Positions 2,105 through 64,000 of a stretch of DNA of 64,000 bases are shown in pieces. Made by a program: the position numbers and the translations under genes. Source of the DNA: an uncultured Actinomycetes bacterium (GTDB lineage: Bacteria > Actinomycetota > Thermoleophilia > UBA2241); contig CAVRZA010000008.1 of NCBI GenBank assembly GCA_963725665.1, positions 128,001-192,000 on the forward strand. The letters are read 5' to 3'. The notes under the pieces were generated by a model. The model saw only the letters and a program-made list of their open reading frames with translations. It made no database searches and was not told the origin of the DNA. The stretch's first letter is position 1; the number at the start of each line of letters is the position of its first letter.

Positions 2105-2125
2105 GAGCTCGAGAAAAGCGGCAAG

Positions 2126-2243
2126 CGTCTTCAGGGCGGGGTGGAAGTCCCCACCGGCGGTGAGAGCCCGCGACCCGTTCGAGAGAGCGGTGGACCAGGT
2201 GGAACTCCTGGGCCGACGGTGAGAGTCCGGATGGGAGAAGACG
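2126..2243 (+). ncRNA. FMN riboswitch (RFN element)
   Basis: AGGGCGGGGTGGAAGTCCCCACCGGCGGT...AGCCCGCGA...GCCGACGGTGAGAGTCCGGATGGGAGAAG consensus, closing CGTCTTC/GAAGACG stem, upstream of ribD. Confidence 0.96.
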
Positions 2244-2271
2244 GCTGGCCGAGCCACGAGGCTCGGCCAGC

Positions 2272-19802: not shown

Positions 19803-19857
19803 CCTCAGGGCCCTCACAGGTCGCCCAAAGGTTCTCTTCAGGGCGGGGCGCGAGAGT
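19803..19857 (+). promoter_or_regulatory. ABC operon promoter with four half-sites
   Basis: CCTCAGG-N4-TCACAGG-N4-CCAAAGG-N4-CTTCAG, 10 nt, GAGAGT. Confidence 0.6.
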
Positions 19858-19884
19858 GATGAAAAACGACCGAAGGAGTCAGGG

Positions 19885-45467: not shown

Positions 45468-45800
45468 ATGTCAGCCACCGTGAAGCAGATCAACACCGCT
45501 CCCGCACGCTCGCTGAACCAGCGGATGGAGGCCCTGCTGCGCGCCAATCAGGTGCGCAGCAAGCGCGCCGCGCTCAAGGCCGACCTGAAGAGGGGCAAGG
45601 CGAGCATCGTCACGGTGCTGGGCGACCCACCTGAGTTCCTCGCGACGGCAAAGGTCATCGACGTGCTGATGGCCGCGCCGAAGTGCGGCAGGGTGAAGTC
45701 GGCGAAGATCATGGAGATGTGCCGCGTCAGCCAGAGCAAGACAGTGGGCGGCCTCTCCGATCGCCAGCGCCGGGAGCTCCTCGCCTACTTCGGAGGCTAG
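45468..45800 (+). CDS. mihF: Actinobacterial integration host factor (mIHF)
   Basis: RAALKADLK.G, KV.D.L..P..G.VK..IM..V...VGGL..RQR..L; upstream of gmk. Confidence 0.85.
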   Translation: MSATVKQINTAPARSLNQRMEALLRANQVRSKRAALKADLKRGKASIVTVLGDPPEFLATAKVIDVLMAAPKCGRVKSAKIMEMCRVSQSKTVGGLSDRQRRELLAYFGG

Positions 45801-45803
45801 GGC

Positions 45804-46364
45804 ATCGCGCAGGTCTTCGTGATCTCGGGGCCGTCGGGCGCCGGGAAGGGGACCGTCATCGCGCGCGTGCTCGAGTCTCTCGACGGGCTGTCTCTGTCGG
45901 TGTCGGCGACCACGCGGCCGCCGCGTCCCGGAGAGATCGACGGCGTGCACTACCACTTCCTCTCCCGCGACCAGTTCGAGCGCGCTGCTGACGAGGGCAG
46001 GTTTCTTGAGTGGGTAGAGTATGGAGGTAACCTGTACGGCACGCTGCGTAGCGATGTCGAAAGCAGGCTGGCGGAGGGCAGCGACGTCATCCTTGAGATC
46101 GAGCTCCAGGGGGCGCGCAACGTGCGGCGCGCGCTGCCCGACGCGGAGCTCATCTTCATCGCCCCGCCGTCGTTCGGCGACCTCGCCGCGAGACTGCGTG
46201 GCAGGGGGACCGAGAGTGAGCACGCCATCGCGGCGCGCTTGCGCATCGCGCGCGACGAGGTCGCGGCGGCGCGAGAGTTCGATCACGTGGTGGTGAACGA
46301 CGAGGCCAACAAGGCGGCGCGCGAGGTGGTGGAGCTCATCGTCGCGCGCCGCACCGTGAGCTAG
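45804..46364 (+). CDS. gmk: Guanylate kinase (probable ATC start; first canonical GTG at 45819)
   Basis: VFVISGPSGAGKGT, SVSATTR.PRPGE.DG.HY.F, FLEW, LEIE.QGA. Confidence 0.95.
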   Translation: MAQVFVISGPSGAGKGTVIARVLESLDGLSLSVSATTRPPRPGEIDGVHYHFLSRDQFERAADEGRFLEWVEYGGNLYGTLRSDVESRLAEGSDVILEIELQGARNVRRALPDAELIFIAPPSFGDLAARLRGRGTESEHAIAARLRIARDEVAAAREFDHVVVNDEANKAAREVVELIVARRTVS

Positions 46365-46381
46365 AAGAGAGAGGGAGACCA

Positions 46382-46618
46382 GTGGACCGTCCAAGCATCG
46401 ACGAGTTGCTCGGCCACGCCGGCGGGTCGCGCTACGCGCTCGCGATCATCGCGGCCAAGCGCGCTCGGCAGATCAACAACTACTACAACAGCCTCGGTGA
46501 GGGACTCCTCGACGACGACTTCCCGCCGCCGCTCGTTACCTCGCGCAGCAAGAACCTGCTGACGATCTCGCTCGAAGAGGTCGCCGAGGGCAAGATCGGC
46601 CTGTCGCACAGGGACTGA
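46382..46618 (+). CDS. rpoZ: RNA polymerase omega subunit
   Basis: P.IDELL..SRYAL..AAKRARQIN.YY; gmk-rpoZ-coaBC synteny. Confidence 0.93.
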   Translation: MDRPSIDELLGHAGGSRYALAIIAAKRARQINNYYNSLGEGLLDDDFPPPLVTSRSKNLLTISLEEVAEGKIGLSHRD

Positions 46619-46683
46619 CGCCGTCGCTGCGTGGCGACCGGGGAGGGGGACGTGAGCGACATCGGCCAGCGAGAGGCGAGGGC

Positions 46684-47901
46684 GTGAACGAGGGTGAGCG
46701 GACCGTGCTGGTGGGGGTCACCGGCGGCATCGCCGTGTACAAAGCCGTGGAGCTGGTGCGTCTGCTGGTCAAGGACGGGTTCGCCCCCGTCGTGGTCGCC
46801 ACCGAGGCCGCCAAGCGCTTCGTGATGCCGCTGACCTTCGCCGCCATCTCGGGCTCGCCCGTCCTCGAAGAGGAGAGCGCCTGGCGGGCCGACGGCGGTT
46901 GGTTCCAGCACATCGAGGCCGCGCGCCGAGCTCAGGCGCTGGTCGTCGCCCCCGCGACGGCCAACACGCTGGCGAAGATGGCCGCCGGCATCGCCGACAA
47001 CCTCCTGACGGCGATCTACCTGGCGTTCCGAGGTCCCGTCGTCGTCGCGCCCAGCGCGAACTGGGCGATGTACGAGCACCCGGCGACGCAGGAGAACCTG
47101 CGCGTGCTGGCCGGACGCGGCGTCGAGGTGCTGCCGACGGGCGAAGGCGCGCTCGCCTGCGGCGAGACCGGTTCGGGGCGCATGGCCGAGCCCGACGAGA
47201 TCCTCGCCGCCGTCAAGCGCGCCTTCGCCGCCGCCGCCGCCGGGCCGCTGGCCGGGCGCAAGGTCGTCGTCACCGCCGGCGGCACGCGCGAACCGCTCGA
47301 CGCGGTGCGCTTCATCGGCAACCGCTCGAGCGGCAAGATGGGGCGCGCCGTGGCCGACGACGCCTACCTGCGCGGGGCCGAAGTGGTCCTCATCGAGGCC
47401 GTGCGCGCGACGCTGCAGACCGCCTACCGGCGGCTCGTTGTCGAGACCTGCGACGAGATGGCCGCGGCGGTGGCCGCCGAGACGGCCGACGCCGACGTGC
47501 TCGTCATGGCGGCGGCCGTCGCCGACTTCAAGCCGGCGCGGCCGCAGACGCACGAGAAGATCGACCGCGCCGGCCGAGACCAGCTCACCGTCGAGCTCGT
47601 GCCCACAGTCGATATCCTCGCGACGAGCGCCCGCGCGGGCCTCCTGCGCGTCGGCTTCGCCGCCGAGGCCGGCCCGCGCCTCGACCGCGCCCGCGCCAAG
47701 AAGGCCGCCAAGGGCGTCGACCTGCTCGTCTTCAACGACATCTTGGCGGTCGGCGTCGGCATCGGCTCCGACGAGAACGAGATCACCATCCTCGCCCCGC
47801 GCGAGGAGATCCGCATCGAGCGCAGTCCCAAGTCGGAGTGCGCCCGGGCCATCCTCGACCAGGTCGAGCTGTTGCTCACGAGTAGGAGAAGCGCTACATG
47901 A
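46684..47901 (+). CDS. coaBC: Phosphopantothenoylcysteine decarboxylase/ligase
   Basis: GVTGGIAVYK, APATAN.LAK.A.G.ADNL, LACG..G.GRM, TAGGT.E.LD.VRFI.N.SSGKMG. Confidence 0.96.
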   Translation: MNEGERTVLVGVTGGIAVYKAVELVRLLVKDGFAPVVVATEAAKRFVMPLTFAAISGSPVLEEESAWRADGGWFQHIEAARRAQALVVAPATANTLAKMAAGIADNLLTAIYLAFRGPVVVAPSANWAMYEHPATQENLRVLAGRGVEVLPTGEGALACGETGSGRMAEPDEILAAVKRAFAAAAAGPLAGRKVVVTAGGTREPLDAVRFIGNRSSGKMGRAVADDAYLRGAEVVLIEAVRATLQTAYRRLVVETCDEMAAAVAAETADADVLVMAAAVADFKPARPQTHEKIDRAGRDQLTVELVPTVDILATSARAGLLRVGFAAEAGPRLDRARAKKAAKGVDLLVFNDILAVGVGIGSDENEITILAPREEIRIERSPKSECARAILDQVELLLTSRRSAT

Positions 47902-48455
47902 GCCTGGATCGCGCGCAGCTCGCGGCGCTCGTCGACGAACGCGTCGCCAACGAGAACCTGCGCCGCCACATGCTCGCCAGCGAGGCCATCATGCGCGCAG
48001 TAGCCGTCCATCTCGGAAGGGATGCGGACGTCTGGGGTCTCGCGGGTCTCGGCCACGACCTCGATTCCGAGCAGACCGAGGACGACTTCAGGCGCCACGG
48101 GCGCGAGGCCGCCGATCTCCTGGCCGCGGCCGGCGCGCCCGACGACGTGGTCCACGCCGTCGCGGCGCACAACCCGGCCACCGGCGCGCCGGCCGATCGG
48201 CCCATCGACGTCGCGCTCATCGCCGCCGACCAGCTCAGCGGGCTGATCACGGCTGCCGCACTCGTGCGTCCCGACAAGGAGCTGGCCGGCGTGCAGGTGA
48301 AGTCGCTGCGCAAGCGCTTCCGTGAAGGCGCGTTCGCGCGGGGGGTCGACCGAGCCTCCATCCAGCGCTGCGAGGAGCTCGGCATCCCTCTGGACGACTT
48401 CTTCGCCCTCGGCCTCGCCGCGATGCAGGACATCGCACCCAGCTTGGGTATGTAG
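47898..48455 (+). CDS. HD-domain metal-dependent phosphohydrolase
   Basis: LRRHML, GL.HDLD, H, AH, AD..SGLI.A..LVRP.K. Confidence 0.85.
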   Translation: MSLDRAQLAALVDERVANENLRRHMLASEAIMRAVAVHLGRDADVWGLAGLGHDLDSEQTEDDFRRHGREAADLLAAAGAPDDVVHAVAAHNPATGAPADRPIDVALIAADQLSGLITAAALVRPDKELAGVQVKSLRKRFREGAFARGVDRASIQRCEELGIPLDDFFALGLAAMQDIAPSLGM

Positions 48456-48510
48456 CGTTAAGGCGTCCGCGACGCGGCCGCAAGGCGCCGTCGCGGTGGC
48501 AGGCGAGCGC

Positions 48511-48942
48511 ATGGACGACGAGAACAGACGACCCCGGGGCGACGAGCCCGCAGTACCGCACGACGAGGCCTACGACCTCTTCCAACGTGGGCAGACGTTC
48601 CTGCGCCACAATCACCCCGGCCAGGCGGCCGTCTTCTTCGAGCGCGCCCGGCGCCTCGCGCCCGGCAAGAACTCGATCCGCGAGGCGCTCGGGCGCGCGT
48701 ACTTCCATCTCGGCTGCTACGACCGTGCCGCCGCGGAGTTCTCGGCCATCGTCGAGCACGTGCCGACGAACGACTACGCGCGCTACGCTTTCGGACGCGC
48801 GCTGCTCAAGCTCGGCCGATTCGCCGAGGCGCGCGCCCAACTGCGCCTGGCGCTCGCCATGTCACCCGCCAATCACTGGTACCAGGCCGCGCTGGAGCGC
48901 TGCCTGGCCGAGGAGCAGCGCGCGGCAGACGCCGGTCGGTGA
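48511..48942 (+). CDS. Tetratricopeptide repeat protein
   Basis: EAYDLFQRG, SIREALGRAYF, YA..A.G.AL..LG...EA helical repeats. Confidence 0.8.
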   Translation: MDDENRRPRGDEPAVPHDEAYDLFQRGQTFLRHNHPGQAAVFFERARRLAPGKNSIREALGRAYFHLGCYDRAAAEFSAIVEHVPTNDYARYAFGRALLKLGRFAEARAQLRLALAMSPANHWYQAALERCLAEEQRAADAGR

Positions 48943-48963
48943 CCGCCGTACCGGGGGGTGCGG

Positions 48964-49908
48964 TCAGACCGCCTGCGGGGCCGGCGCCCCCGGCGCCGGC
49001 CCCTCGTGCGCCATCGCCAGGAGCACCGCGATGCGCTTCTGGATGGGCGGGTGGGTGTCGAACAGGCCTTCGGTCTCGCGCAGCTTGCGCAGGGGGTTGG
49101 CGATGTAGAGGTGTGCCGTGGCCCTGTTGGCCGCGCGCAGCGGCCGCGGGTCGGCGGCGATCTTCTCGAGCGCGTGGGCCAGCCCGACGGGGTTGCGCGT
49201 GAGCTCCGCGCCGGAGGCGTCGGCGAGGTACTCACGCCGCCGCGAGACGGCCATCTGCACGAGCCACGCGAAGAGCGGCGCGAGGATGGCCAGCGCGATG
49301 GCCAGCAGGAAGATGAGACCTCCGCCGCCACCGCTGTCGTCGCCCGAGCGGCGGCCGAAGCCTCCCCAGAACGTCGAGCGCAAGAAGAAGTCGGCGACGA
49401 GCGCGATGAGCCCGACGAGGATGCCCACCAGCGTGGCGAAGCGCACGTCGTAGTTGCGCACGTGCGACATCTCATGCGCGATGACGCCCTGCAGCTCCTC
49501 GCGGTTCATCATCTGCAGCAGGCCGCTGGTAACGGCGACGGAGGCGTGCTGCGGGTCGCGGCCGGTCGCAAAGGCGTTGGGCGCCGGGTCGTCGATCACA
49601 TACACGGCGGGCATGGGTGTGCCGGCGGCGATGGTCATCTCCTCGACCACGTTCCAGAGCTGCGGCGCCTCCTCGTGCGTGACCCGACGCGCCCCGCTCG
49701 CCGCGAGGACCATGCCGGCGCCCGCGTAGTAGCCGATGATGCTCCACAGGATGGCGATCACGCCGAAGACACCCAGCAGGCCGAGGCCGCCGTACGGCCG
49801 CCCGGTGAGGGCGACGCCGATCACGAACCCAAGGAGGAGAAGGACGGCGACGACCGCAGCCATGAGCAGCCACGAGGCGCGCTTGTTGCGGGCGATCTGC
49901 TCGTACAT
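48964..49908 (-). CDS. htpX: M48 zinc metalloprotease HtpX
   Basis: PNAFATG, ELQGVIAHEMSHV.N.D, SRRREYLAD, F.THPP. Confidence 0.95.
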   Translation of the reverse strand: MYEQIARNKRASWLLMAAVVAVLLLLGFVIGVALTGRPYGGLGLLGVFGVIAILWSIIGYYAGAGMVLAASGARRVTHEEAPQLWNVVEEMTIAAGTPMPAVYVIDDPAPNAFATGRDPQHASVAVTSGLLQMMNREELQGVIAHEMSHVRNYDVRFATLVGILVGLIALVADFFLRSTFWGGFGRRSGDDSGGGGGLIFLLAIALAILAPLFAWLVQMAVSRRREYLADASGAELTRNPVGLAHALEKIAADPRPLRAANRATAHLYIANPLRKLRETEGLFDTHPPIQKRIAVLLAMAHEGPAPGAPAPQAV

Positions 49909-49962
49909 GGTTCTCTCTTACCCTGGCGGCACGGCCTCGGATCAGACGTCGCGCCGTAGCCG

Positions 49963-50523
49963 CTAGCGCAGATCGACCTTGACCGGCTCCCTGTCGGCCT
50001 CGTCGCCCTGGAAGAACTGCCGTTCCTTGAAGTTGAAGAGCCCGGCGATGATGTTGGTCGGCACCGACTGGATCTTCATGTTGTAGGTCATCACGCTGTC
50101 GTTGTAGAACTGCCGCGCGAAGGCGATCTTGTTCTCGGTCGCCGTGAGCTCCTCCTGGAGCGACATGACGTTCTGGTTCGCTTTGAGATCGGGGTAGTTC
50201 TCGACCACGGCGAACAAGGAGCGCAGCGCCTGCGTGAGGCCGTTCTCGGCGGCCGCCTGTGCGGCGGGGCCCTGGGCCCCGGCCGCCACGGCCGCCGCCC
50301 TCGCCTGTGTCACGTTGGTGAGCGTCTCCTGCTCGTAGGCCATGTAGTCCTTGACGGCCTCGACCAGGTTCGGGATCAGGTCGTGGCGACGCTTGAGCTG
50401 CACGTCGATCTGGCTCCACGAGTTGTCGACCTGGTTGCGCCGTTTGACGAGGCTGTTGTACATGCCGGCGATGACCGCGACGATGATCACCACGATCACG
50501 ATGAGGATGATGGCTATGATCAC
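49963..50523 (-). CDS. lemA: LemA family protein
   Basis: N-terminal TM, YN.LV, WSQIDVQLKRR.DLIPNLV, VENYPDLKA, ENKIAFARQFYN. Confidence 0.95.
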   Translation of the reverse strand: MIIAIILIVIVVIIVAVIAGMYNSLVKRRNQVDNSWSQIDVQLKRRHDLIPNLVEAVKDYMAYEQETLTNVTQARAAAVAAGAQGPAAQAAAENGLTQALRSLFAVVENYPDLKANQNVMSLQEELTATENKIAFARQFYNDSVMTYNMKIQSVPTNIIAGLFNFKERQFFQGDEADREPVKVDLR

Positions 50524-50755
50524 GGATCACTCCTTTGTCGACTCGCCTGGCGTCTACTGCCCGACATGCCCCGGACGTCTGTAGTGTACGCCGCGCGCGG
50601 CGCGCTTACCTGCCCGTCGGGCGCGATGATGACCGGCGCAGGGGTGAGCGCCGCGCCGCCGGGCGGGTGAGGCGGGCGCGCGCGGCGGCGATGTACACCC
50701 CGAGAGGGGTGCTCTATCCTTGGGCCAGGATGCACGACCTCGGCGCATACGCCCC

Positions 50756-51559
50756 GTGACACCCGCCCGCCGTCGCGGCGCCCTCGCCCTGTTCGAGGCT
50801 GTCGCCCTCGTCGTCGCCCTCGCGAGCCTCGGCTACTTCGTAGTGCACGTGCGCGCCGCCGGGGGCGGCACGCTGAAGCCGCTCGCGGCCGTCAGCGCGC
50901 CGCCAGCCCCGTCGGGCTCGCCCTCCGCGAGCCCCGGCGCGGCCGACATCCATCACTGGATCGTGGCCAAGGCGGCGGGGCCGATCGTCGCCCGCACGCG
51001 GCCGAGTGCCTCGGCTCCCGTGCGGGCGACGTTCGGTACACGCACGGCGAACGGTTTCCCGACCCTCTTTCTCGTGAACGAGACGCGCAACGTAGACGGG
51101 CGGACCTGGTACCGGGTGTGGTTGCCGGTACCTCCCAACGGGAGCCGAGCCTGGATTGTCGAGGGCGGTCTGGCGACCTACCCGACCACGACCAAGATCG
51201 TCATCGACCTCTCAAGGCGGCGCCTGGCTGTGATCCGCGGCGACCATGATCTGGCCGGTTACCCGGTAGCGATCGGCACCTCCCAGTACCCGACACCGAC
51301 GGGGTTCTTCTTCCTGACGGAGAAACTGCGCCCTCGGACCCCGGGAGGGCCGTACGGAGTGCTCGCGCTCGCTCTGAGCGCCTTCCAGCCCAAGCTCTCA
51401 TGGTGGCCCGGCGGGGGACAGGTGGCCATCCACGGCACCAACCGGGACGAGCTCATCGGCCAGGCGGTGAGCCACGGGTGCGTACGCATGCACGACGCGA
51501 ACATCCTGAAGGTGAGCGAGCTGGTGCCGGCCGGCAGCCCGGTAGTGATCCAGCCCTAG
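50756..51559 (+). CDS. L,D-transpeptidase (YkuD family), membrane-anchored
   Basis: VAIG....PTPTG.F, AIHGTN, SHGCVRM. Confidence 0.92.
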   Translation: MTPARRRGALALFEAVALVVALASLGYFVVHVRAAGGGTLKPLAAVSAPPAPSGSPSASPGAADIHHWIVAKAAGPIVARTRPSASAPVRATFGTRTANGFPTLFLVNETRNVDGRTWYRVWLPVPPNGSRAWIVEGGLATYPTTTKIVIDLSRRRLAVIRGDHDLAGYPVAIGTSQYPTPTGFFFLTEKLRPRTPGGPYGVLALALSAFQPKLSWWPGGGQVAIHGTNRDELIGQAVSHGCVRMHDANILKVSELVPAGSPVVIQP

Positions 51560-51625
51560 AGAGCGGGGAGCGGGGCAGGCCCCGCGGCGCCTGCCGCCGT
51601 CAGGGAACCTCTCAGGTGGTGGTCC

Positions 51626-51910
51626 TCACCAGTAGTCGCCCTGCAAGAGTCTCATGTCGTGGGCGTTGCACTTCGGGCAGGTGTACGAGGCCGCCTTCTC
51701 GAGGAAGAAGAGCTGGCTGCCGCACGCCAGGCAGTTGAACTCATCGACCATGATGTCGGCCCCGGTCAGGTCGACCTCGCAGATCGTCTTGCACTCTACG
51801 CAGAAGGCAGGCATGAAGCGGATGCGCGGATCCCTCATGCTGACGCCCCAGCGGATCTGTTCCGCTCTGTAGCCACACTCGCGGCACTCGAAGGTCGTGA
51901 ACTCTCCCAT
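51626..51910 (-). CDS. 94-aa protein with four CxxC motifs (double zinc ribbon-like)
   Basis: CREC, CVEC, CLAC, CPKC; purine-rich SD; GC3-biased codons. Confidence 0.8.
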   Translation of the reverse strand: MGEFTTFECRECGYRAEQIRWGVSMRDPRIRFMPAFCVECKTICEVDLTGADIMVDEFNCLACGSQLFFLEKAASYTCPKCNAHDMRLLQGDYW

Positions 51911-52184
51911 GACGTCCCTTCCCTTCCCTCTCGACTCCGCCGTCCGTGCCGCCAGTAGTATCGGCAGCAGGCGGCCGCTCGTTGAGCGCTCGGTGATCGG
52001 CCGGCGTGCACGGCGGGCGCACTCGCCGCGGGTGCCTCTAGACGCGCCTTGGCCGGCGCCTTGCGGCGGCAGCGCCTCCTGGCGGTTCCACCGCTGAGAC
52101 CTGCCTCCTTGAATGGCCGTTTTGCAGGGATGTTGCGCCCGAGGTGACGGCCACACGACGGCTGCGGGCACACGGCGCCATGCC

Positions 52185-52213
52185 TTGATTGCAGGCTATT
52201 CGGGGTATACAGT
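52185..52213 (+). promoter_or_regulatory. sigma70 promoter of the rimP-nusA-infB operon
   Basis: TTGATT, 17 nt, TACAGT. Confidence 0.7.
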
Positions 52214-52256
52214 AGCGGGACTTAAACGACACACTCTTGGGAGGCGGACTCTTTCG

Positions 52257-52281
52257 GAAGTGGGTGCACGAGCCCACTTTT
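52257..52281 (+). terminator. rimP leader hairpin/attenuator
   Basis: GAAGTGGG-TGCACGAG-CCCACTTTT hairpin with T-tract just before the rimP start. Confidence 0.7.
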
Positions 52282-52288
52282 GTCTTGT

Positions 52289-52740
52289 ATGGAACGGCAC
52301 GCGCTGGCACATCTGATCGAACAGAAGATCTCCGAGCGCTTCGACGACGTCGAGGTGGTCGACTTCGAGCTGCGCAAAGGCAGAGACCCGCTGCTCACCG
52401 TCTACATCGACCGGCCGAGCGGGGTCGACCTCGACCTGTGCGTGGCGGTCACGCACGCACTCGATGCGTTGCGCGACACGTACCGCCTCGAGGTGTCGTC
52501 GCCCGGCCTCGATCGCCCGCTGCGCAAGCCGGAGCAGTTCGCACGCGTCGCAGGCAGTGAGGTGGCGGTCAAGACGGCGGCGCCGCTCCAAGGGCGCGCG
52601 TCGTATCGCGGCGTGCTCACGACGGCCGACGAGACCACGATCACGCTACGACTCGACGAGGGGCGCGACGTGACCATCCCCTACGCCGAGGTCGTCAGGG
52701 CGCGTCTCGTCCCCACCTTCGATTCGACTGGGAGGCCAAC

Positions 52741-52744
<4 letters not shown>
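52289..52744 (+). CDS. rimP: Ribosome maturation factor RimP
   Basis: L.VYID..GV.LD.C, Y.LEVSSPGLDRPL; upstream of nusA. Confidence 0.93.
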
Positions 52745-54024
<1,280 letters not shown>

Positions 54025-54029
54025 CGGCG

Positions 54030-54302
54030 ATGTCGGCGCCCACGCGTACGTGCCTTGGCTGCCGCGGCAGGCGAGCGCGCGACAAGCTGATACGATTGCA
54101 GCTGCGCGACGGGAGGGTAGCCCCGCTGGAGGGGCCCGCCGCCGGCCGAGGCGCCTACCTGTGCCCCGACCGGGTGTGCTTCGACGCGGCGTTGCGGCGC
54201 AAAGCCTTCGCGCGCGCCTTCCGCTCGCCGGCGCACGTCGACGAGCGCCTCTGGGAAGCTATCGAGGCTCGCGCAGCCGAGCCTAGTCGCGAAAGGCAGT
54301 GA
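54030..54302 (+). CDS. ylxR: YlxR/RnpM (DUF448) RNA-binding protein
   Basis: P.RTC.GCR, GRGAYLC, C...A..RKAF.RAF. Confidence 0.88.
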   Translation: MSAPTRTCLGCRGRRARDKLIRLQLRDGRVAPLEGPAAGRGAYLCPDRVCFDAALRRKAFARAFRSPAHVDERLWEAIEARAAEPSRERQ

Positions 54303-54307
54303 GGCAG

Positions 54308-56419: not shown

Positions 56420-56732
56420 GGCTTACATCGGCCTGCTCTTGGCCGACCTGCACTTCCCCGAGAACCGCTCGCTCAAGGACAAGCGCTCGCCTCTGGCTTC
56501 GCTGCGCGACGTGGTCCAGCTGCGCTTCAAGGCGTCGTTCAGCGAGGTGAGCCTCCAGGAGAGCTGGCAGCGGGCGCGGGTGCTCATCGTGCTTGCCGCC
56601 TCGTCGGCGAGCCAGGCGCAGGAACGTATCGACGAGATCGACCGCTACCTGCACGGGCAGGAGTTCGAGGTGGCCTGGGTCGTCCGCAAGTCGGTCGACG
56701 CGGTGGAGGTCGAATGGGACGCCGCCTTCTGA
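56409..56732 (+). CDS. DUF503/YlxP family protein
   Basis: SLKDKR..L..RF..S.SEV..Q..WQRA; between infB and rbfA. Confidence 0.88.
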   Translation: MAAEAYIGLLLADLHFPENRSLKDKRSPLASLRDVVQLRFKASFSEVSLQESWQRARVLIVLAASSASQAQERIDEIDRYLHGQEFEVAWVVRKSVDAVEVEWDAAF

Positions 56733-57127
56733 AGGTGAACGAGGCGGTCCGCGAGGTCCTCTCGAGCGTGATCGCCGAGGGCCTCAAAGACCCCCGCATC
56801 GGGTTCGTCACCGTGACCTCGGTCGAGACTTCGACCGACCTTCGGCACGCCAAGGTGTTCGTGAGTGTGCTCGGTGGGCAGCGTGAGCGCGAGGAGACGC
56901 TGGCCGGGCTGCGCTCGTCGCACGGCTACCTGCAGGAGCGCGTGGCCGAGGCGGTGCGCCTGAAGCGGACGCCACAGCTCGAGTTCGTCTACGACGGATC
57001 GGTCGATCGTGGCATGCGCATCAACGAGCTCCTGCAGCGCTACGAGGCCGAGGTGCGCGAGGCGGACGGCGAGGACGGCGCGACGGGGGAGAGGGGCGCA
57101 CGGGACACCGCCGAGGAGACCGGGTGA
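56714..57127 (+). CDS. rbfA: 30S ribosome-binding factor A
   Basis: LKDPRIGFVTVT.V..DL..AKVF.S, LKRTP.L.F.YD.S. Confidence 0.96.
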   Translation: MGRRLLKVNEAVREVLSSVIAEGLKDPRIGFVTVTSVETSTDLRHAKVFVSVLGGQREREETLAGLRSSHGYLQERVAEAVRLKRTPQLEFVYDGSVDRGMRINELLQRYEAEVREADGEDGATGERGARDTAEETG

Positions 57128-58104
57128 CGAACTGTGCCGCGGCCGATCTCGACGCCGTCTGCCGCGCCATGAGAAGCGAGACGCTTGTCGCGGTGGCCGT
57201 CCACGAGAACCCCGACTACGACGCCGTGGGCGCCGCGGTCGGGCTCCTCGACCTGTTCGCGCAGCTCGGCGTCGAGGGCCACCTGTTCGTCGACGCCGAC
57301 GAGCGGCTGCCCGACGCCGAGCACATCGTGCCGCCCGGCGCGGTCGTCCGCAGCCTCCCCCCGCAGGAAGCCTCACTCTATGCCCTCGACTGCGGCTCCT
57401 TCGACCGCATCGCGCTGCCGCTCGACGTCTGGCGAGGGCGCCTGGTCGACATCGACCATCACCCCGACAACACCGCTTTCGGCGAGTTGAACCTACTGCG
57501 GCCTCAGGCGGCCAGCACCTCCGAGATCGTCTGCGAGCTCGCCGGTCGCCTCGGACTGACGCCGTCCGCGATCGCCGCGGCGGCCCTCTACACCGGCATC
57601 TCCTTCGACACGGGGCACTTCCGCCACGCGAACACGACCGCCGACACTCTGCGCTGTGCCGCGGACCTCGTCGCGGGGGGCGCCGCTCCCGACGAGCTCT
57701 ACCGCGAACTGTACGAGCGGCGTACCTTCGCCGGGCTGCAGCTCTGGGGGCGCGCCGTCGCCGGCGCCCGCCGCGTAGCCGGCGGACGGGCCGTGGTGAG
57801 CGTCCTGACACTCGCCGACTACGAAGCCACGGGCGCCGGGGAGGACGAGACCGAGGGCATCGTCGATTCGCTGCGCGCCCTCGACGGCGTCGACGCGGCC
57901 GCTCTCGTCAAGGAACAGACGAGGGGAGCACGGGTGCGCGTCAGTCTGCGCTCGCAGGAGCTCGACGTGGGCGCGCTCGCGGCGGCTCTCGGAGGAGGGG
58001 GCCACCGCAACGCGGCCGGGTTCTCGAGCGATGACGGACCGGAGGAGGTGGCCCGCTGGCTCAGTTCAGAACTCGCCGGGCGCCTGGCGACGGCATCCTC
58101 CTGA
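57124..58104 (+). CDS. nrnA: DHH-family oligoribonuclease/PAP phosphatase NrnA
   Basis: H.NPD.DA.G, IDHH, YTGI..DTG.F, VSLRS, GGGGH.NAAG. Confidence 0.92.
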   Translation: MTNCAAADLDAVCRAMRSETLVAVAVHENPDYDAVGAAVGLLDLFAQLGVEGHLFVDADERLPDAEHIVPPGAVVRSLPPQEASLYALDCGSFDRIALPLDVWRGRLVDIDHHPDNTAFGELNLLRPQAASTSEIVCELAGRLGLTPSAIAAAALYTGISFDTGHFRHANTTADTLRCAADLVAGGAAPDELYRELYERRTFAGLQLWGRAVAGARRVAGGRAVVSVLTLADYEATGAGEDETEGIVDSLRALDGVDAAALVKEQTRGARVRVSLRSQELDVGALAAALGGGGHRNAAGFSSDDGPEEVARWLSSELAGRLATASS

Positions 58105-58967
58105 TCGACAAGCCGAGTGGCTGCACCTCGCACGACGTGGTCGCGAGAGTACGGCGCCTGCTGCGCCCCGCAGTGAAGAAGGTGGGTCATGCCGGCACAC
58201 TCGACCCGTTCGCCACCGGGCTCCTCATCGTGCTCGTCGGCCGCGCCACCAAGCTGGCGCGCTTCTTCGTCGACTTGCCCAAGGAGTACGTGGGCACACT
58301 GCGCTTCGGCTTCACCTCCGACAGCGGCGACCGCACGGGCGAGCTCGACCGCACGGCGAAGACGGTGACTCTCGACGAGGTCTCCGCCGTGTTGCCGCGG
58401 TTCATCGGCCACGTCACGCAGACCGTTCCCATGACTTCGGCCGTGAAGGTCGACGGCGAACGCCTGTACAAGAAAGCGCACCGCGGCGAGGTGATCGAGA
58501 CACCCACCAAGGAGGTCGAGATCTCGTCGATCGAGGTGCTCGACTTCGACGGCCGGGCGCAGACGATGTTGGCCCGCGTCATCTGCTCGAAGGGGACCTA
58601 CGTCCGCCAACTGGCCATCGACATCGGCGAGGCGATCGGCGCCGGCGCCTACCTCGAGGAGCTGGCGCGGGCTGCGATCGGCCCGTTCAGGCTCGATGGC
58701 GCACAGCCGCTGGCCGAGTTCGAGGCGGCTGTCGTGGCGCGCGACGACGGCGACGAGCGCATCCCCGGACTGCTGACGCCTGGCGGGGCGCTCCAGTTCC
58801 TGCCCGCCGTGGAGATCGGCGCTGCCCAGGTCCCCGGTGTGCGCAACGGCGCGCGGCTGCCCGCGGCTGCGCAAGAGGCAGTGCGGGTCGTCCACCGCGG
58901 AGAGCTTCTGGCGGTCTACGGCCCAGCCGAGGACGGCCGTGCCTTGAAGCCGCTCGTCATGATGTGA
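58056..58967 (+). CDS. truB: tRNA pseudouridine(55) synthase TruB (probable CTG start)
   Basis: GILLIDKP.G.TSHDVV, KVGHAGTLDPFATG, SAVKVDG.RLY, CSKGTYVR. Confidence 0.95.
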   Translation: MAQFRTRRAPGDGILLIDKPSGCTSHDVVARVRRLLRPAVKKVGHAGTLDPFATGLLIVLVGRATKLARFFVDLPKEYVGTLRFGFTSDSGDRTGELDRTAKTVTLDEVSAVLPRFIGHVTQTVPMTSAVKVDGERLYKKAHRGEVIETPTKEVEISSIEVLDFDGRAQTMLARVICSKGTYVRQLAIDIGEAIGAGAYLEELARAAIGPFRLDGAQPLAEFEAAVVARDDGDERIPGLLTPGGALQFLPAVEIGAAQVPGVRNGARLPAAAQEAVRVVHRGELLAVYGPAEDGRALKPLVMM

Positions 58968-59051
58968 GGGGCGGGAGATGGTGGCCACTCAGTCGTTCGA
59001 TGGGTGCTCCGCAACCATGAGCCAGAGACTTGTGGTGACGAAGGACGCGGG

Positions 59052-60056
59052 GTGGAGACCGTAAGGGACCTGGGCGCGCTGGCGCGCCGCCCCCGCGCGA
59101 TCGCCATCGGCACCTTCGATGGCGTGCACATCGGGCACCAGCGCGTCATCGGACTCGCCGTCGAGGCGGCGCGCGAGCGCGGTATCACGTCAGCCGCCGT
59201 CACGTTCGAGCACCACCCACTGGCCGTCATCGCCCCTCACCGTCAACCCCGCCTGCTGACGTCGCTCACGCTCAAGATAGAGTTCATCGCCGACCTGGGC
59301 GTCGATGAGACAGTCGTCTTGCCGTTCGACCATGCGATGGCGGCCATGACGCCGGAGGAGTTCTGCGCCCTCCTCGCCGAGCAGCTGACGGCGCGAGTCG
59401 TGGTGGTAGGCGGCAACTTCACCTTCGGCGCCGGCGCCAGGGGCACATCGGCCGACCTGGCGGGATGCGGCCGCGTGCACGGGTTCGAGGCCAAGATCGT
59501 CCCCCTCGTGCTGGCCGGCGGGCGACCGATCTCTTCGTCACGCATCCGCGAGCTCGTGCAAGGCGGCAGGCTCGCGGAGGCGCGTGAGATCCTCGGCCGC
59601 CCGCCGCGTGCCATCGGCAGCGTAGTGCGCGGCTTCGAACGCGGGCGACGCCTCGGCTTTCCGACAGCGAATATCGAGGCCCACACCGGCACGCTGTTCC
59701 CGGGCCTCGGCGTCTACGCGGCCCGGGCGCAAGTCGACGGTCGCTGGTACCGCGCGGCGGTCAACGTGGGCCACAACCCCACCTTCGTGCATCACGGCGA
59801 CGAGCTGGGCACTGTGCACGTCGAGGCCTACCTCATCGGCTTCGAGGGCGACATCTACGGCCGCGAGGTGCGCCTAGACTTCCTCGAGAAGATCCGCGAC
59901 GAGATCGCGTTCGAGTATGTCGACGATCTCGTCGCTCGGATGCACGCCGATGTCGCGCACGTCAAGTCCCTCGACGACGCCTGCTACGCCGACGTAGGCC
60001 TCGCAGTCGGCGAGTCGGCGCCGGGTGCGGCTCGCTCCGACGCACCCGGCGCGTAG
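59052..60056 (+). CDS. ribF: Bifunctional riboflavin kinase/FAD synthetase
   Basis: [40 protein letters not shown]. Confidence 0.96.
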
Positions 60057-60165
60057 TGCCCGCCCAGACGGATCGCTCGCCCACGGCGACCGCGCCGCCA
60101 TCCACGCTCGGGCGGGCCGCTTCGCCGCCCGCCCTGTTTGTCGACCCGCGTCCGTGTGGTATGGT

Positions 60166-60244
60166 ACCCGGCGACCGTCTCTCGGTCTGGGGCCGCCGAC
60201 CCCTCACTGGGTTTCCGGATCATCCCGCAAGGGAGGTGATTCCC
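60166..60244 (+). promoter_or_regulatory. Structured rpsO 5' leader (putative S15 autoregulatory element)
   Basis: Extended -10 TGnTATGGT at 60157-60165; GGATCA-TCCC-GCAA-GGGA-GG-TGATTCC hairpin covers the SD. Confidence 0.6.
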
Positions 60245-60514
60245 CTGGCACTCACGAAGGACGCGAAGAGCGAGATCATCACCAAGCACGCCAAGCACGA
60301 CGGCGACACGGGTTCGCCCGAAGTGCAGATCGCTCTCCTCACGACGCGCATCAACACCCTCACGGAACATCTCAAGACGCACAAGAAGGACCACCACTCG
60401 CGCCGTGGCCTCCTGATGATGGTCGGCCACCGCCGCCGCCTGCTCGACTACCTGCAGGCGAAGGACGTGGAGCGCTACCGTTCTCTGGTGAAGGAGCTCG
60501 AGCTGCGCAAGTAG
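60245..60514 (+). CDS. rpsO: 30S ribosomal protein S15 (probable CTG start)
   Basis: [32 protein letters not shown]; 89 aa from CTG 60245. Confidence 0.97.
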
Positions 60515-60603
60515 CGGCCCCCGGGGGGAGCGCCCCACCGGCGATACGACGAAAGCCCGCGCGCATCGACGACGCTGCGGGCAAAGAAGGAAGAGAGAAG
60601 TAG

Positions 60604-62706
60604 ATGACAAGAGTAGAAGCTGAGATCGGCGGCAAGGCGATCTCCCTCGAGACGGGCAAGCTGGCGAAGCAGGCCAACGGCGCCGTTCTCGTCCGCTGCG
60701 GCGACACGATGGTGCTCGTCACCGCGGTCGGACGCGAGGAGGGCCGCGAGGGGCAGGACTTCTTCCCCCTCACGGTCGACATCGAGGAACGGATGTACGC
60801 CGCCGGCAAGATCCCCGGCGGTTTCATCAAGCGCGAATCGCGACCCAGCGAGAAGGCGATCCTCACGGCGCGGCTCATCGACCGCCCCATCAGGCCCTCG
60901 TTCCCCAAAGGTTTCATGAACGAGGTGCAGATCATCGGCACAGTGCTGTCGGTCGACCAGGAGAACGCCTACGACGTGCTCGCCATGCTGGGCGCGTCGG
61001 CGGCTCTGCACGTCTCCGAGATCCCCTTCTTGGGGCCCATCGGCTCGGTGCGCATCGGCATCATCGACGGCGAGTACGTCGTCAACCCCACGCTCGAGCA
61101 GCTCCAGACGGCCACGCTCGACATCGTCGTCTCCGGCTCGCGCGACGCGTTGAAGATGGTCGAGGCGGGCGCCCGCGAGGTCACCGAAGAGCAGGTCCTC
61201 GAGGCCCTGCGCTTGGCCCAGGCGGAGCTCGTCAAGCTCATCGACCTCCAGGACCGGCTGCGTAGCGAAGCGGGCAAGGAGAAGTGGCCCGTCCCCGAGT
61301 GGAGCATCGATCAGGGGATCTACAACCAGATCAAGGAGCGCTTCGGCGCCGAGCTCGACCGGGCGACGCAGGTCGAGGACAAGCGCGGGCGCTCGGAGGC
61401 GACCGTCGAGGTGCGCCAGCAGGCGCTCGAGGCCTTCGCCCCCGGCGATGGGGAGGAGCCCGACCCCGAGCGCATGCTCCAGGCGCGACGCGCCTTCGCG
61501 CAGCTCGAGAAGGACATCATCCGGCGGCGCATCGCCGTCGAGAAGCGGCGTCCCGACGGGCGCGGCCTCGACGAGATCAGGCTGGTGAGCGCCGAAGTGG
61601 GCGTCTCCCCGCGCACTCACGGCAGCGCCCTCTTCACGCGCGGCCAGACGCAGGCGATGACCCTGATCACGCTGGGGGCCACCGGTGAGCACCAGCGCAT
61701 CGACGGTCTCGGCCTCGAGGACTCGAAGCGCTACCTGCACCACTACAACTTCCCGCCCTTCTCGGTGGGTGAGACGGGGTTCATGCGGGGACCGAAGCGG
61801 CGCGACATCGGGCACGGCGCCCTCGCTGAGCGCGCCCTGCTGCCGATGGTGCCCGACGAGAAGGACTTCCCCTACACGCTGCGGCTCGTGAGCGAGATCC
61901 TCGAGAGCAACGGCTCGTCGTCGATGGCCAGTGTCTGCGGGTCGACGCTGGCCCTCATGGACGCCGGAGTGCAGATCAAGGCTCCGGTGGCCGGCATCGC
62001 CATGGGGCTGGTCAAGGAGGGCGACGACTACGTCGTCCTGACCGACATCGCCGGCGTCGAGGACCACCTCGGCGACATGGACTTCAAGGTGGCGGGCTCG
62101 AGCGAGGGCATCACCGCCTTGCAGATGGACATCAAGATCAGCGGCGTGTCGGTGGCGATGCTCCAGGAGGCTCTCGAGCAGGCGCGCAAGGCGCGTCTCT
62201 TCATCCTCGGCAAGATGCTCGAGGTGATCCCCGAACCGAGAGCTGAGCTCTCACCGTACGCGCCGCGCATCATCACGATGCAGATCAATCCCGACCAGAT
62301 CGGCATGGTCATCGGCAAGGGCGGCGAGACCATCAAGGGCATGGTCGAGGAGTTCGGCGTCACGATCGACATCGAGGACGACGGTACGGTCTTCATCTGC
62401 GCGCCCGACATGGCCACGGCCGAGGCGGTCACCGAGCGCATCACCAGCATGACCAAGGACGTCGAGATCGGCGACATCATCACCGGCAAGGTCGTCAAGA
62501 CGACCGCCTTCGGCGCCTTTGTCGAGCTCAAGAAGGGCGTCGATGGCCTCATCCACATCTCGAAGCTGGGCAAGGACGGAGAGCGCGTGGCACGCGTCGA
62601 GGACGTCGTGAACCGCGGTGACGTCGTCACCGTCGAGGTGGTCGAGGTTGACCAACAGCGGGGCCGCATCGGTCTCAAGCCGATCGACCTGAACGTGAAC
62701 CGCTAG
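60604..62706 (+). CDS. pnp: Polyribonucleotide nucleotidyltransferase
   Basis: ETGKLAKQA.G, DFFPLTV, HGSALFTRGQTQ, HHYNFPPFSVGE, ESNGSSSMAS, GDMDFKVAG, KH and S1 domains. Confidence 0.98.
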   Translation: MTRVEAEIGGKAISLETGKLAKQANGAVLVRCGDTMVLVTAVGREEGREGQDFFPLTVDIEERMYAAGKIPGGFIKRESRPSEKAILTARLIDRPIRPSFPKGFMNEVQIIGTVLSVDQENAYDVLAMLGASAALHVSEIPFLGPIGSVRIGIIDGEYVVNPTLEQLQTATLDIVVSGSRDALKMVEAGAREVTEEQVLEALRLAQAELVKLIDLQDRLRSEAGKEKWPVPEWSIDQGIYNQIKERFGAELDRATQVEDKRGRSEATVEVRQQALEAFAPGDGEEPDPERMLQARRAFAQLEKDIIRRRIAVEKRRPDGRGLDEIRLVSAEVGVSPRTHGSALFTRGQTQAMTLITLGATGEHQRIDGLGLEDSKRYLHHYNFPPFSVGETGFMRGPKRRDIGHGALAERALLPMVPDEKDFPYTLRLVSEILESNGSSSMASVCGSTLALMDAGVQIKAPVAGIAMGLVKEGDDYVVLTDIAGVEDHLGDMDFKVAGSSEGITALQMDIKISGVSVAMLQEALEQARKARLFILGKMLEVIPEPRAELSPYAPRIITMQINPDQIGMVIGKGGETIKGMVEEFGVTIDIEDDGTVFICAPDMATAEAVTERITSMTKDVEIGDIITGKVVKTTAFGAFVELKKGVDGLIHISKLGKDGERVARVEDVVNRGDVVTVEVVEVDQQRGRIGLKPIDLNVNR

Positions 62707-62730
62707 GGAGAGAGCGCGGAGGCCTCAGCT

Positions 62731-64000
62731 ATCGAAGGCTTCGAGCTCTCGACGCTCGAGGGCGGGCTCCGGGTCGCCAGCCAACGGCTGCCCGGGGTCC
62801 GCTCGATCGCGCTCGGCGTCTGGATCGGCGCCGGCTCGCGCCTCGAGACGGCCGCGCAGGCCGGTATCTCGCACTTCATCGAGCACCTGATCTTCAAGGG
62901 CAGCGAGCGCTACTCGGCCTGGGACATCGCGCGCATCTTCGACGAGATGGGCGGCGAGATCAACGCCGCCACGTCGAAGGAGTACACGATCGTCCACGCC
63001 CGCTTTCTCGACGAGCAGCTCGAGACGGCCCTGACGGTCATCGCCGACATGGTGCGTAACCCGCTGTTCGCCGACCTCGAGGCCGAGCGCGAGGTCGTGC
63101 TCGAAGAGGTCGCCATGTACGAGGACTCGCCGCAGGAGCTCGTGCACGACGTGCTGGCCGAGGCGGTCTTCGACAGCCACCCGCTGGGGCGAGCGGTCAT
63201 TGGCCGGGCCGAGTCGCTGCGCGCGACCGACAAAGCCGCCGTGCAGGCCTACCACGGCGCGTACTACGTGAGCCCGGCGATCGTGCTGGCCGCCGCCGGC
63301 AACGTCGATCACGGACGGCTCTGTGAGCTGACGCAGAAGCACCTGGCGGGCGGCGCGGCGGGTCCCTCCGTCGCGCCGCCCGCCATCGCGCCCGCCCAGC
63401 CCGCGCCGCGGCATGTGGCCACCTTCACGCTCAAGGAGACGGAGCAGTACCACGTCTGCTTGGGCGGCCTCGGGCTGGCCCGCAACGACCCGCGGCGCTT
63501 CGCCCTCTCGGTCGTCGACACGGCCATCGGCGGCTCGTCGAGCTCGCGCCTCTTCCAGGAGGTGCGCGAGAAGCGCGGCCTCGCCTACTCCGTGTACTCG
63601 TACACCTCGCTCTACGCCGAGACCGGCCTCGTGGCCGTCTACGTGGGCTCACGCCAGGAAGCGCTGGCCGAGGCTATGGGCATCATCCGTGAGGAGCTCA
63701 CCCAAGCCGACCGGCTCCCCGGGGCCGAGATCGCGCGAGCGAAAGCCCACCTCAAGGGCCAGATGGTCCTCAGCATGGAGAGCCCGTCGGCGCGCATGCA
63801 CCAGCTCGGCCGCTCTGTGCTGAGCGGCATCGAGATCCTCTCGCTCGACGAGCTCCTCGCCAAGGTAGAAGCCGTCACCTACGAGGAGGCCATCGAGACG
63901 GCGCGGGCCTACTACGGCCTCGAGCGCTGGTCGACCGTCTGCATCGGCCCCGACGCGGCGCCGTTCCGCGCCGCCGTCCCCGACTTCACCTGGGAGGGCG
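62731..64000 (+). CDS. M16 (pitrilysin) family peptidase, runs off the window, probable ATC start
   Basis: GLRV, GSR.E..GISHFIEHL.FKG (HxxEH), INA.TSKE.T, HPLGR..IG, SSRLFQEVREKRGLAYSV; absent from the ORF track because no stop lies in the window. Confidence 0.92.
   Translation, partial: MEGFELSTLEGGLRVASQRLPGVRSIALGVWIGAGSRLETAAQAGISHFIEHLIFKGSERYSAWDIARIFDEMGGEINAATSKEYTIVHARFLDEQLETALTVIADMVRNPLFADLEAEREVVLEEVAMYEDSPQELVHDVLAEAVFDSHPLGRAVIGRAESLRATDKAAVQAYHGAYYVSPAIVLAAAGNVDHGRLCELTQKHLAGGAAGPSVAPPAIAPAQPAPRHVATFTLKETEQYHVCLGGLGLARNDPRRFALSVVDTAIGGSSSSRLFQEVREKRGLAYSVYSYTSLYAETGLVAVYVGSRQEALAEAMGIIREELTQADRLPGAEIARAKAHLKGQMVLSMESPSARMHQLGRSVLSGIEILSLDELLAKVEAVTYEEAIETARAYYGLERWSTVCIGPDAAPFRAAVPDFTWEG

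Follow-up and report, generated by a model that had tools for sequence, protein, structure and literature searches.

Probable near-cognate translation starts in gmk, truB, rpsO and an M16 peptidase gene of an uncultured Thermoleophilia family

Introduction

In bacteria, initiation at near-cognate codons has been documented in a few genes of Escherichia coli and in reporter assays; E. coli pcnB, for instance, has an AUU start codon. Here, we describe start codons of this kind in a stretch of 64,000 nucleotides (nt) of DNA (the window; positions 128,001 to 192,000 of contig CAVRZA010000008.1, assembly GCA_963725665.1) from an uncultured soil and wetland member of the Thermoleophilia (Actinomycetota). 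Four genes of the window, namely gmk, truB, rpsO and a gene for an M16 peptidase, carry ATC, CTG, CTG and ATC, respectively, at the position where the conserved protein begins, as had been put forward in an earlier reading of the letters of this DNA (the sequence-only reading). We consider that these are probably genuine near-cognate starts, which would be used by the initiator tRNA (fMet-tRNA) behind strong Shine-Dalgarno (SD) sequences, would act as built-in weak starts, mostly of coupled downstream cistrons, and would be kept by selection.

In the E. coli reporters described in a passage of Hecht et al. (10.1101/063800), initiation from AUA, AUC, AUU and CUG reaches 1-2% of the AUG level and that from all other codons 0.1-1%, so that ACG is in the lower range; the N-terminal residue is Met, and ACG is absent from the start codons annotated in the genomes surveyed there. 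The starts considered here would be alike in near-cognate initiation and in the Met N-terminus. On the other hand, those reporters were engineered, whereas the codons here are natural, conserved across genera and located in essential genes. The central U of bacterial start codons is described as their one invariant position in a passage of PMC4611024. According to passages of PMC3592434 and PMC4611024, the AUU of E. coli infC is a near-cognate codon behind a normal ribosome-binding site that limits translation and is sensitive to initiation factor 3 (IF3), and infC is located 3 nt after the preceding cistron, like gmk here, which is located 3 nt after the upstream stop. In comparison with infC and pcnB, the genes here are gmk, truB, rpsO, the M16 peptidase gene, gcvPA and ispF, the codons are AUC, CUG, AUA and ACG, and infC of the family itself begins with ATG.

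ACG starts of chloroplast genes are usually edited to AUG, and we know of no mRNA editing of this start-codon kind in bacteria. Conserved non-AUG starts of chloroplast genes, in bacterial-type translation, are proposed as a regulatory layer in a passage of PMC9845219; the difference is that the system is an organelle. Translational coupling by termination-reinitiation or scanning, as presented in passages of PMC12548453 and PMC6728339, is similar in that the start is near or overlaps the upstream stop, whereas non-canonical starts in coupled genes are not treated in those passages. The CTGA of ispF is the counterpart of the common ATGA overlap. Unlike closely coupled genes, the M16 gene is 24 nt from the pnp stop, truB has a 49-nt overlap and rpsO has its own leader.

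Autoregulatory rpsO leaders that respond to ribosomal protein S15 are described as pseudoknots of E. coli and of mycobacteria in passages of PMC8470358 and PMC4137082. The rpsO leader here resembles them as a conserved leader with a predicted structure that involves the SD, and it also belongs to an actinobacterium. Mycobacterial rpsO starts with GUG according to the passage in PMC8470358, whereas here CUG is found in 10 species representatives, no Rfam family matches and the hairpin is a prediction. In the open-access literature that we searched, no description was found of Thermoleophilia genes with a conserved ACG, AUC or CUG start, of an rpsO that begins with CUG or of natural bacterial ACG starts, and conserved ACG starts would be unusual for bacteria.

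Results

Four start sites in the window

The genome of the window (G000, in which the window is positions 128001-192000 of contig C8) has 3.73 Mb, 68% G+C and 12 contigs. The relatives of the same uncultured family are metagenome-assembled genomes (MAGs) from peat, bog, wetland, sediment and bioreactor; other G numbers denote their genomes, and L numbers denote locus stretches of relatives or of contigs from the Joint Genome Institute (JGI). Based on Pfam, the genes are found in two strings, the first with an H2TH gene (which we take to be mIHF-like), gmk and rpoZ, and the second with infB, rbfA, a DHH/DHHA1 phosphoesterase gene, truB, ribF, rpsO, pnp and the M16 peptidase gene.

All four codons (gmk ATC 45804, truB CTG 58056, rpsO CTG 60245 and M16 ATC 62731) were located where the sequence-only reading had placed them, each with GGAGG 7-8 nt upstream. 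That reading had also stated that no usable ATG, GTG or TTG is present. Indeed, none fits the conserved N-terminus at any of the four sites, but an in-frame GTG in rpsO (60236) had been overlooked, which is inside the SD and has no spacer.

The start column of the M16 peptidase gene

62718-62722, + strand: GGAGG Shine-Dalgarno of the M16 peptidase gene, 8 nt ahead of ATC (sequence)
62731..64000, + strand, continuing beyond the window: M16 (pitrilysin-family) peptidase from ATC 62731 (translation, relatives, Pfam)

When translated from ATC 62731, residues 14-158 of the protein fit Peptidase_M16 on profile positions 1-147. The pnp stop (TAG 62704-62706) is in frame with the gene and 24 nt ahead of the ATC, and the first canonical codon, ATG 62947, is downstream of the HFIEH zinc motif. 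We read the start column in 34 loci of the family (at least 58% identity to the G000 protein) and in 46 outgroup loci (Gaiellaceae, Solirubrobacterales and Conexibacter arvalis), with the following counts.

Family (34), ACG: 18
Family (34), ATC: 4
Family (34), ATA: 4
Family (34), canonical codon within a few codons: 7
Family (34), unclear (ACA): 1
Outgroups (46), canonical in-frame codon in the column itself: 42
Outgroups (46), canonical in-frame codon a little further upstream: 4

The near-cognate codons of this column (ACG, ATC and ATA) are all single-mismatch neighbours of AUG, with the exception of the ACA of G018. The column avoids synonyms to an extent beyond chance: none of the 18 Thr codons is ACC, although the Thr codons of G000 are 44% ACC and 47% ACG (the loci are not phylogenetically independent), and ATA is frequent (four loci) compared with 3.4% of the Ile codons in G000. 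In the relatives, GGGAG or GGAGG is located 5-8 nt ahead of the column. In the 18 ACG loci, amino-acid conservation and third-position wobble set in exactly at the ACG, with mean entropies at codon positions 1/2/3 of 0.46/0.33/0.65 downstream and 1.41/1.37/1.13 upstream. Upstream of the ACG, conservation is limited to the GGGAG/GGAGG; the pnp stop, which may be TGA, TAG or TAA, is 15-30 nt ahead, in varying frames.

We considered whether the true starts are canonical codons elsewhere, that is, an internal GTG or ATG in the M16 gene and in truB, GTG 45819 in gmk and GTG 60236 in rpsO. The public calls do so: the M16 gene of G000 is called as 352 amino acids from ATG 62947, and many relatives are called as 408 amino acids from an internal GTG. 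However, the M16 protein read from ATG 62947 loses the HxxEH zinc motif along with positions 1-59 of the Pfam profile, relatives are found in which the M16 start has no canonical alternative at all, and coding-type conservation sets in at the near-cognate codon. Together with the observations on the other three genes given below, this makes canonical starts elsewhere very improbable.

The start columns of gmk and truB

45792-45796, + strand: GGAGG Shine-Dalgarno of gmk, 7 nt ahead of ATC; a GG-rich equivalent is kept in relatives (sequence)
45804..46364, + strand: gmk (guanylate kinase) from ATC 45804, Pfam Guanylate_kin with residues 4-180 on profile 4-180 (translation)

The SD of gmk is embedded in the final codons of the H2TH gene (TTC GGA GGC TAG), whose stop, TAG 45798-45800, is in frame with gmk and 3 nt ahead of the ATC. 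The sole canonical codon before the P-loop is GTG 45819, five codons downstream of the ATC. This GTG could be taken for the start, but it leaves just M-I before SGPSGAGK, and six family relatives have no canonical codon anywhere ahead of the P-loop. In the start column, 10 evaluable family relatives have ATC (8), ATT (1) and GTC (1), with G002 left out (no anchor found), and ATC or ATA is present in 3/8 outgroups.

58041-58051, + strand: GGAGGAGGTGG, Shine-Dalgarno of truB, 7 nt ahead of CTG; GGAGGT is kept in all relatives (sequence)
58056..58967, + strand: truB from CTG 58056 (open reading frame (ORF) list, sequence, relatives; Pfam TruB_N)

In truB, an in-frame TGA (58032-58034) is located upstream of the CTG, and the next canonical codon is GTG 58137, downstream of the conserved GILLIDKPSGCTSHD. 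A start at this GTG would lose the conserved GILLIDKPSG, which is downstream of the start codon in 17/17 relatives. Since the Pfam TruB model begins only at residue 39, the argument for this start rests on the relatives. The 17 same-family genomes have GTG (9), ATG (7) or TTG (1) in the start column, with the same AQ(F/Y)RTR after it and GGAGGT ahead of it; a set of 80 loci, largely of the same species, gave GTG 15, ATG 9 and TTG 1 among 25 true anchors. From this alignment, the CTG of truB is judged to occupy the start-codon position of the family and to be specific to the genus of G000.

The start column and leader of rpsO

60168..60244, + strand: rpsO 5' leader, strongly conserved across the family, with a predicted hairpin
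60230-60240, + strand: AGGGAGGTGAT, extended Shine-Dalgarno of rpsO, with GGAGG 8 nt ahead of CTG and including the in-frame GTG 60236-60238 (sequence)
60245..60514, + strand: rpsO (ribosomal protein S15) from CTG 60245 (relatives; Pfam Ribosomal_S15 residues 8-88)

In the family, the rpsO start column is CTG in 10/27 loci and ATG in 17/27 (seven other loci were too short to include the gene), and the outgroups are canonical in 17/17. All 10 Leu codons in the column are CTG, compared with 40% genome-wide, in loci that are not phylogenetically independent. The in-frame GTG three codons upstream of the CTG is a canonical candidate, but it overlaps its own SD, of which it forms part, and is left without a spacer. 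In L123, this GTG lies in another frame, the CTG is kept and no in-frame canonical codon is found upstream of the conserved rpsO core; therefore, the CTG must be the rpsO start in L123. Several ATG-type genomes also carry the GTG of the SD out of frame.

The predicted leader hairpin pairs AUCAUCCC with GGAGGUGAU around a GCAAG loop, which would sequester the SD, and is present in both the minimum free energy and the centroid structures. The fold of the leader did not differ significantly from that of shuffled sequence (z-score of +1.19). No Rfam family reached the gathering score for the leader in the scan of the window, and only chance-level matches were found at E up to 10 in 60100-60300. 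It may represent a type of S15-responsive leader not yet described. A candidate extended -10 box, TGGTATGGT, is located near 60158-60166, ahead of the leader.

Independent assemblies and neighbouring genes

A pattern scan for CTG at the truB start yielded two JGI metagenome contigs, L242 and L243, with 87-92% DNA identity to the window. Because they are only 87-92% identical, they represent other organisms and other assemblies. Both carry the truB CTG, the rpsO CTG and the M16 ATC, each with the same SD. Accordingly, the argument of the sequence-only reading that substitution errors do not account for these codons was borne out, since the codons recur in independent assemblies and close relatives, and near-cognate starts proved to be a feature of the lineage, conserved across genera of one Thermoleophilia family. 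As far as comparison of sequences can tell, they are confirmed as real features that gene callers miss and not as sequencing errors.

The cistrons next to the four genes are as follows.

45468..45800, + strand: H2TH protein gene, the cistron upstream of gmk, with stop TAG 45798-45800 (ORF list, sequence, Pfam PF22525 H2TH_5)
57124..58104, + strand: DHH/DHHA1 phosphoesterase gene, whose last 49 nt are shared with the beginning of truB (ORF list, Pfam DHH and DHHA1)
60604..62706, + strand: pnp (polynucleotide phosphorylase) with an ATG start (ORF list, Pfam RNase_PH, PNPase, KH and S1)

As a control at the same loci, pnp has ATG in 27/30 evaluable cases and the DHH gene is canonical within two codons in 19/19; ribF was left out since its N-termini are too variable to score. 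Because the neighbouring pnp and DHH genes keep canonical starts, the weak codons are gene-specific.

Assembly or sequencing errors, or synthesis of the downstream proteins by read-through or frameshifting from the upstream gene, would be a further explanation. The assembly has many frameshift-like ORF fragments, the two TAG stops (45798 and 62704) each share the frame of the gene that follows, and PylS and tRNA-Pyl(CUA) are present in the genome. However, the same codons are found in independent assemblies and across genera, the upstream stop of relatives is frequently of another type (TGA or TAA) or in a different frame, with the near-cognate codon and SD retained, and truB is preceded by an in-frame TGA. 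We regard this explanation as extremely improbable.

As a separate observation, G000 encodes the PylS C-terminal domain (TIGR02367, 314.6 bits, cut-off 178), tRNA-Pyl(CUA) and tRNA-Sec(UCA) (tRNAs by Aragorn). These Pyl and Sec elements are outside the window, on contig C6 at 296347-297081 (+) and c[343702,343774] and on contig C11 at 550041-550138. Since a pyrrolysine system is encoded in this Thermoleophilia MAG, TAG may not always be a stop in G000.

Among sequencing runs sharing sampled words with the locus, 20 DNA runs were listed, with at most 0.22 of the words, and no RNA run was among them. In reads of four runs on 45700-62900, none of the four codons was among the best-supported 40 of about 1980 differences, which carries no weight. 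One X2 contig (62443-62745, 0 differences) reaches only 12 letters past ATC 62731, below the 31-letter minimum, and was not counted.

Further candidates in the genome

We scanned G000 for a perfect GGAGG with a 5-10 nt spacer and an onset of coding signal, and required the stretch between 4 codons upstream and 8 codons downstream to be free of canonical codons. The scan gave 24 rows, corresponding to 22 near-cognate sites, with truB and M16 among them and about 20 further candidates. It misses cases, since gmk and rpsO dropped out through a nearby GTG. Five new candidates were compared with relatives, and four of them (gcvPA, ispF, the ATA gene and the Tat-signal gene) were supported.

gcvPA: ACG, present in 5 genera; in G002, only three codons are located between the upstream stop and the ACG, with no canonical codon
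ispF: in 8 relatives, a CTG that overlaps the stop of ispD (CTGA), and in one further relative (G007), TTG; G000 has CCG there and ACG as the next codon
ATA gene, G000 C6(-)408392: 11 relatives have ATG or GTG at that position
Gene with CTG ahead of a Tat-type signal peptide, G000 C6(-)48685: homologues have TTG or ATG there
ATT-start DUF candidate, C3:51467: no homologue in the 20 relatives searched, only a G000 paralog, with ATG five codons upstream

The gcvPA anchor pattern was located in 9/20 loci, on which its counts rest. Our estimate suggests that near-cognate starts make up about 1% of the genes of G000, mostly behind strong SD sites.

In an ortholog sample of G000 against 400 kilobases (kb) of G018, starts were canonical within six codons in 54/59 cases in G000 and 45/53 in G018, and near-cognate starts amounted to about 1%. 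The remaining starts of both samples belonged to variable N-termini, except for one clear CTG in G018. In the G018 gene LGPCDL... (L082-L101; minus-strand offsets 19804-20788 of the 400 kb), CTG is located three codons after an in-frame stop; its G000 counterpart (C11:541115) has GTG. The CTG of this gene is another near-cognate start, found in a different member of the family.

Three other tests were rejected. BLAST alignments that reach upstream of the first canonical start flagged 57/316 ortholog pairs, but were rejected as evidence because such alignments extend into DNA of the upstream gene that is conserved but out of frame. In an aligned-column test on the 400 kb of G018, most near-cognate matches turned out to be shadow ORFs or to lie next to an ATG. 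A change-point test of codon usage picked out 144 ORFs, most of them without an SD and a near-cognate codon. These 144 stop-to-stop ORFs of G000 show coding-type codon usage well upstream of the first ATG, GTG or TTG, and many of them are short neighbours of one another, such as three consecutive ones at C1(-) 326324-328007. They look like genes split by assembly frameshifts or indels.

Initiation machinery

The sequence-only reading had proposed that the initiator tRNA and the 16S P-site residues be inspected for changes, and none that sets them apart was found. G000 has a single initiator tRNA-fMet, in which the 1:72 pair is mismatched and the three G-C pairs are present; the genome yielded no other initiator-like tRNA. 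Its 16S rRNA equals that of E. coli at the 690 and 790 loops (A790), around 926, at G966/C967 and G1338/A1339, around 1400 and at the anti-SD tail, and the differences at the checked sites are only U965C, A1340G and C1342U. The C-terminal tail of S9 ends with PQFSKR, and the genome has RsmD. For Thermoleophilia, a passage of PMC10783764 gives an extended anti-SD type.

The reading had also brought in infC as the classic case of a near-cognate start screened by IF3. The infC genes of G000 and of 11 family relatives begin with ATG GG[ACT] A[AG][AG] CC[ATG] TT[CT]; since the first codon is ATG, the classic start-codon feedback of infC is not evident here. Upstream of the ATG of infC (G000 C4 ~371158-371776, L081; relatives L224-L236) are AAGGAG, a G+C-rich hairpin (GGGCTCGCT..GCGACCC type) and, directly before the ATG, a T run. 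This leader might serve as an attenuator or as a ribosome-binding site that is structured or discontinuous.

In the INExIR motif of the IF3 N-terminal domain, the Arg is replaced by T, Y, I, S or F in 12/12 family sequences, and it is retained in 7/7 outgroup Thermoleophilia and in 3/3 solved IF3 sequences. The loss represents a single evolutionary event, and it is the sole hint that bears on the IF3-sensing layer suggested by the sequence-only reading.

A rival explanation is that the start-codon check is globally relaxed or retuned, for example by the altered IF3. In that case, AUC, AUA, CUG and even ACG would be efficient, expression of the genes would be normal and such starts should be far more numerous than those found. 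On the one hand, at least 8 genes of G000 have supported near-cognate starts and about 20 sites came from a scan limited to perfect GGAGG, CTG is used by a ribosomal protein gene in 10 species representatives, ACG, which mismatches AUG at the second position, is found repeatedly in two genes and in different genera, and infC has an ATG start. On the other hand, near-cognate codons are not enriched genome-wide behind GGAGG, the starts of the G000 and G018 ortholog sample are mostly canonical, with one clear CTG, neighbouring genes stay canonical, and tRNA-fMet, the P-site bases of 16S, the S9 tail and RsmD are ordinary. Moreover, gmk ATC or ATA is also present in outgroup genomes whose IF3 keeps the Arg, the IF3 change counts as one event, and the scan covers G000 with no matched control genome. 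We therefore do not uphold the general relaxation of initiation stringency that the sequence-only reading had offered, and we consider a global relaxation or retuning clearly unlikely; it is kept alive mainly because a weak codon sits uneasily with a ribosomal protein gene. There is a small but real chance that the family has shifted its start-codon rules, so that ACG, AUC, AUA and CUG would be regular and reasonably efficient starts, even of a ribosomal protein gene, perhaps by means of the IF3 change and long SD pairing.

Other observations in the window

2123-2246, + strand: FMN riboswitch RF00050, 110.4 bits, the sole Rfam match at the gathering score in the window

Discussion

We have compared the starts of gmk, truB, rpsO and the M16 gene with those of their relatives, and genuine near-cognate initiation is the reading that we prefer. 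In this mechanism, the initiator fMet-tRNA (anticodon CAU) would be set on AUC or CUG, and in relatives on ACG or AUA, by a strong SD 5-8 nt upstream. Initiation with one mismatch would give a normal Met N-terminus at a low rate, and the weak codon would be kept by selection in particular genes of the family. Five of the six conserved cases are downstream cistrons near or overlapping the upstream gene, namely gmk, truB, M16, ispF (overlapping ispD) and gcvPA (close behind the stop). Since the ribosome finishes the upstream gene next to these starts, it is already on the message. Coupling would probably deliver ribosomes, and the weak codon would set a low output relative to the upstream protein. 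In the case of rpsO, the weak codon behind the predicted SD-sequestering hairpin may act together with it in S15 feedback. Weak starts fit enzymes that are required in small amounts, and are uncomfortable for a ribosomal protein.

Several points weigh against near-cognate initiation as we propose it. First genome-wide statistics for GGAGG and spacer gave 26 CTG against 18.7 expected and 13 ATC against 11, which is no clear enrichment. In the stricter scan, non-start codons (GCC, GGC) were equally frequent at orphan SD sites, with no enrichment of CTG, ATC or ACG, and the scan therefore yields candidates and not a rate. The SD strength of part of the additional gene set is biased, since these genes were found by a GGAGG-based scan. 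In two relatives, the codon in the column is not a single-mismatch neighbour of AUG: G003 (L046) has GTC in gmk, with no canonical codon before the P-loop, and G018 (L121) has ACA in M16, with ACG two codons upstream. The codons of the M16 column would also encode a plausible set of interchangeable residues (M/V/L/I/T). For rpsO, an in-frame GTG is located 9 nt upstream in 9/10 CTG loci, where an S15 longer by three residues is possible. Also, rpsO needs output at the level of ribosomes, and a codon with 1-2% of the AUG rate looks too weak unless the lineage reads CUG better or makes more mRNA. Finally, what the sequences show is where the starts lie, that canonical alternatives are lacking, that the codons are conserved and that the initiation machinery is normal; decoding by fMet-tRNA and low efficiency are steps that we infer, and the roles of coupling and expression tuning have the same standing.

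If near-cognate initiation is accepted, what is new here is the gene set, the interchange of codons across genera, the CUG-start rpsO and the ACG starts. They would form a natural, evolutionarily replicated set, in which one start column switches between AUG, GUG or UUG and AUC, AUA, ACG or CUG, in essential genes that include a ribosomal protein gene. The ACG starts would contradict the textbook statement, as worded in a passage of PMC4611024, that the central U is invariant. For work on initiation fidelity, the locus offers concrete initiation regions and a candidate IF3 variant. In terms of annotation, public calls for these MAGs cut N-termini, such as that of the M16 peptidase, which is left without its zinc-binding motif.

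In summary, the meaning of these starts for the family depends on how well they are read. If the weak codons only tune operon stoichiometry, they would be a tidy and modest addition to what is known. If they are read efficiently, they would bear on the evolution of start-codon fidelity, and if the start-codon rules of the family have indeed shifted, standard gene callers would systematically truncate or miss a class of genes in an abundant peat and wetland lineage.

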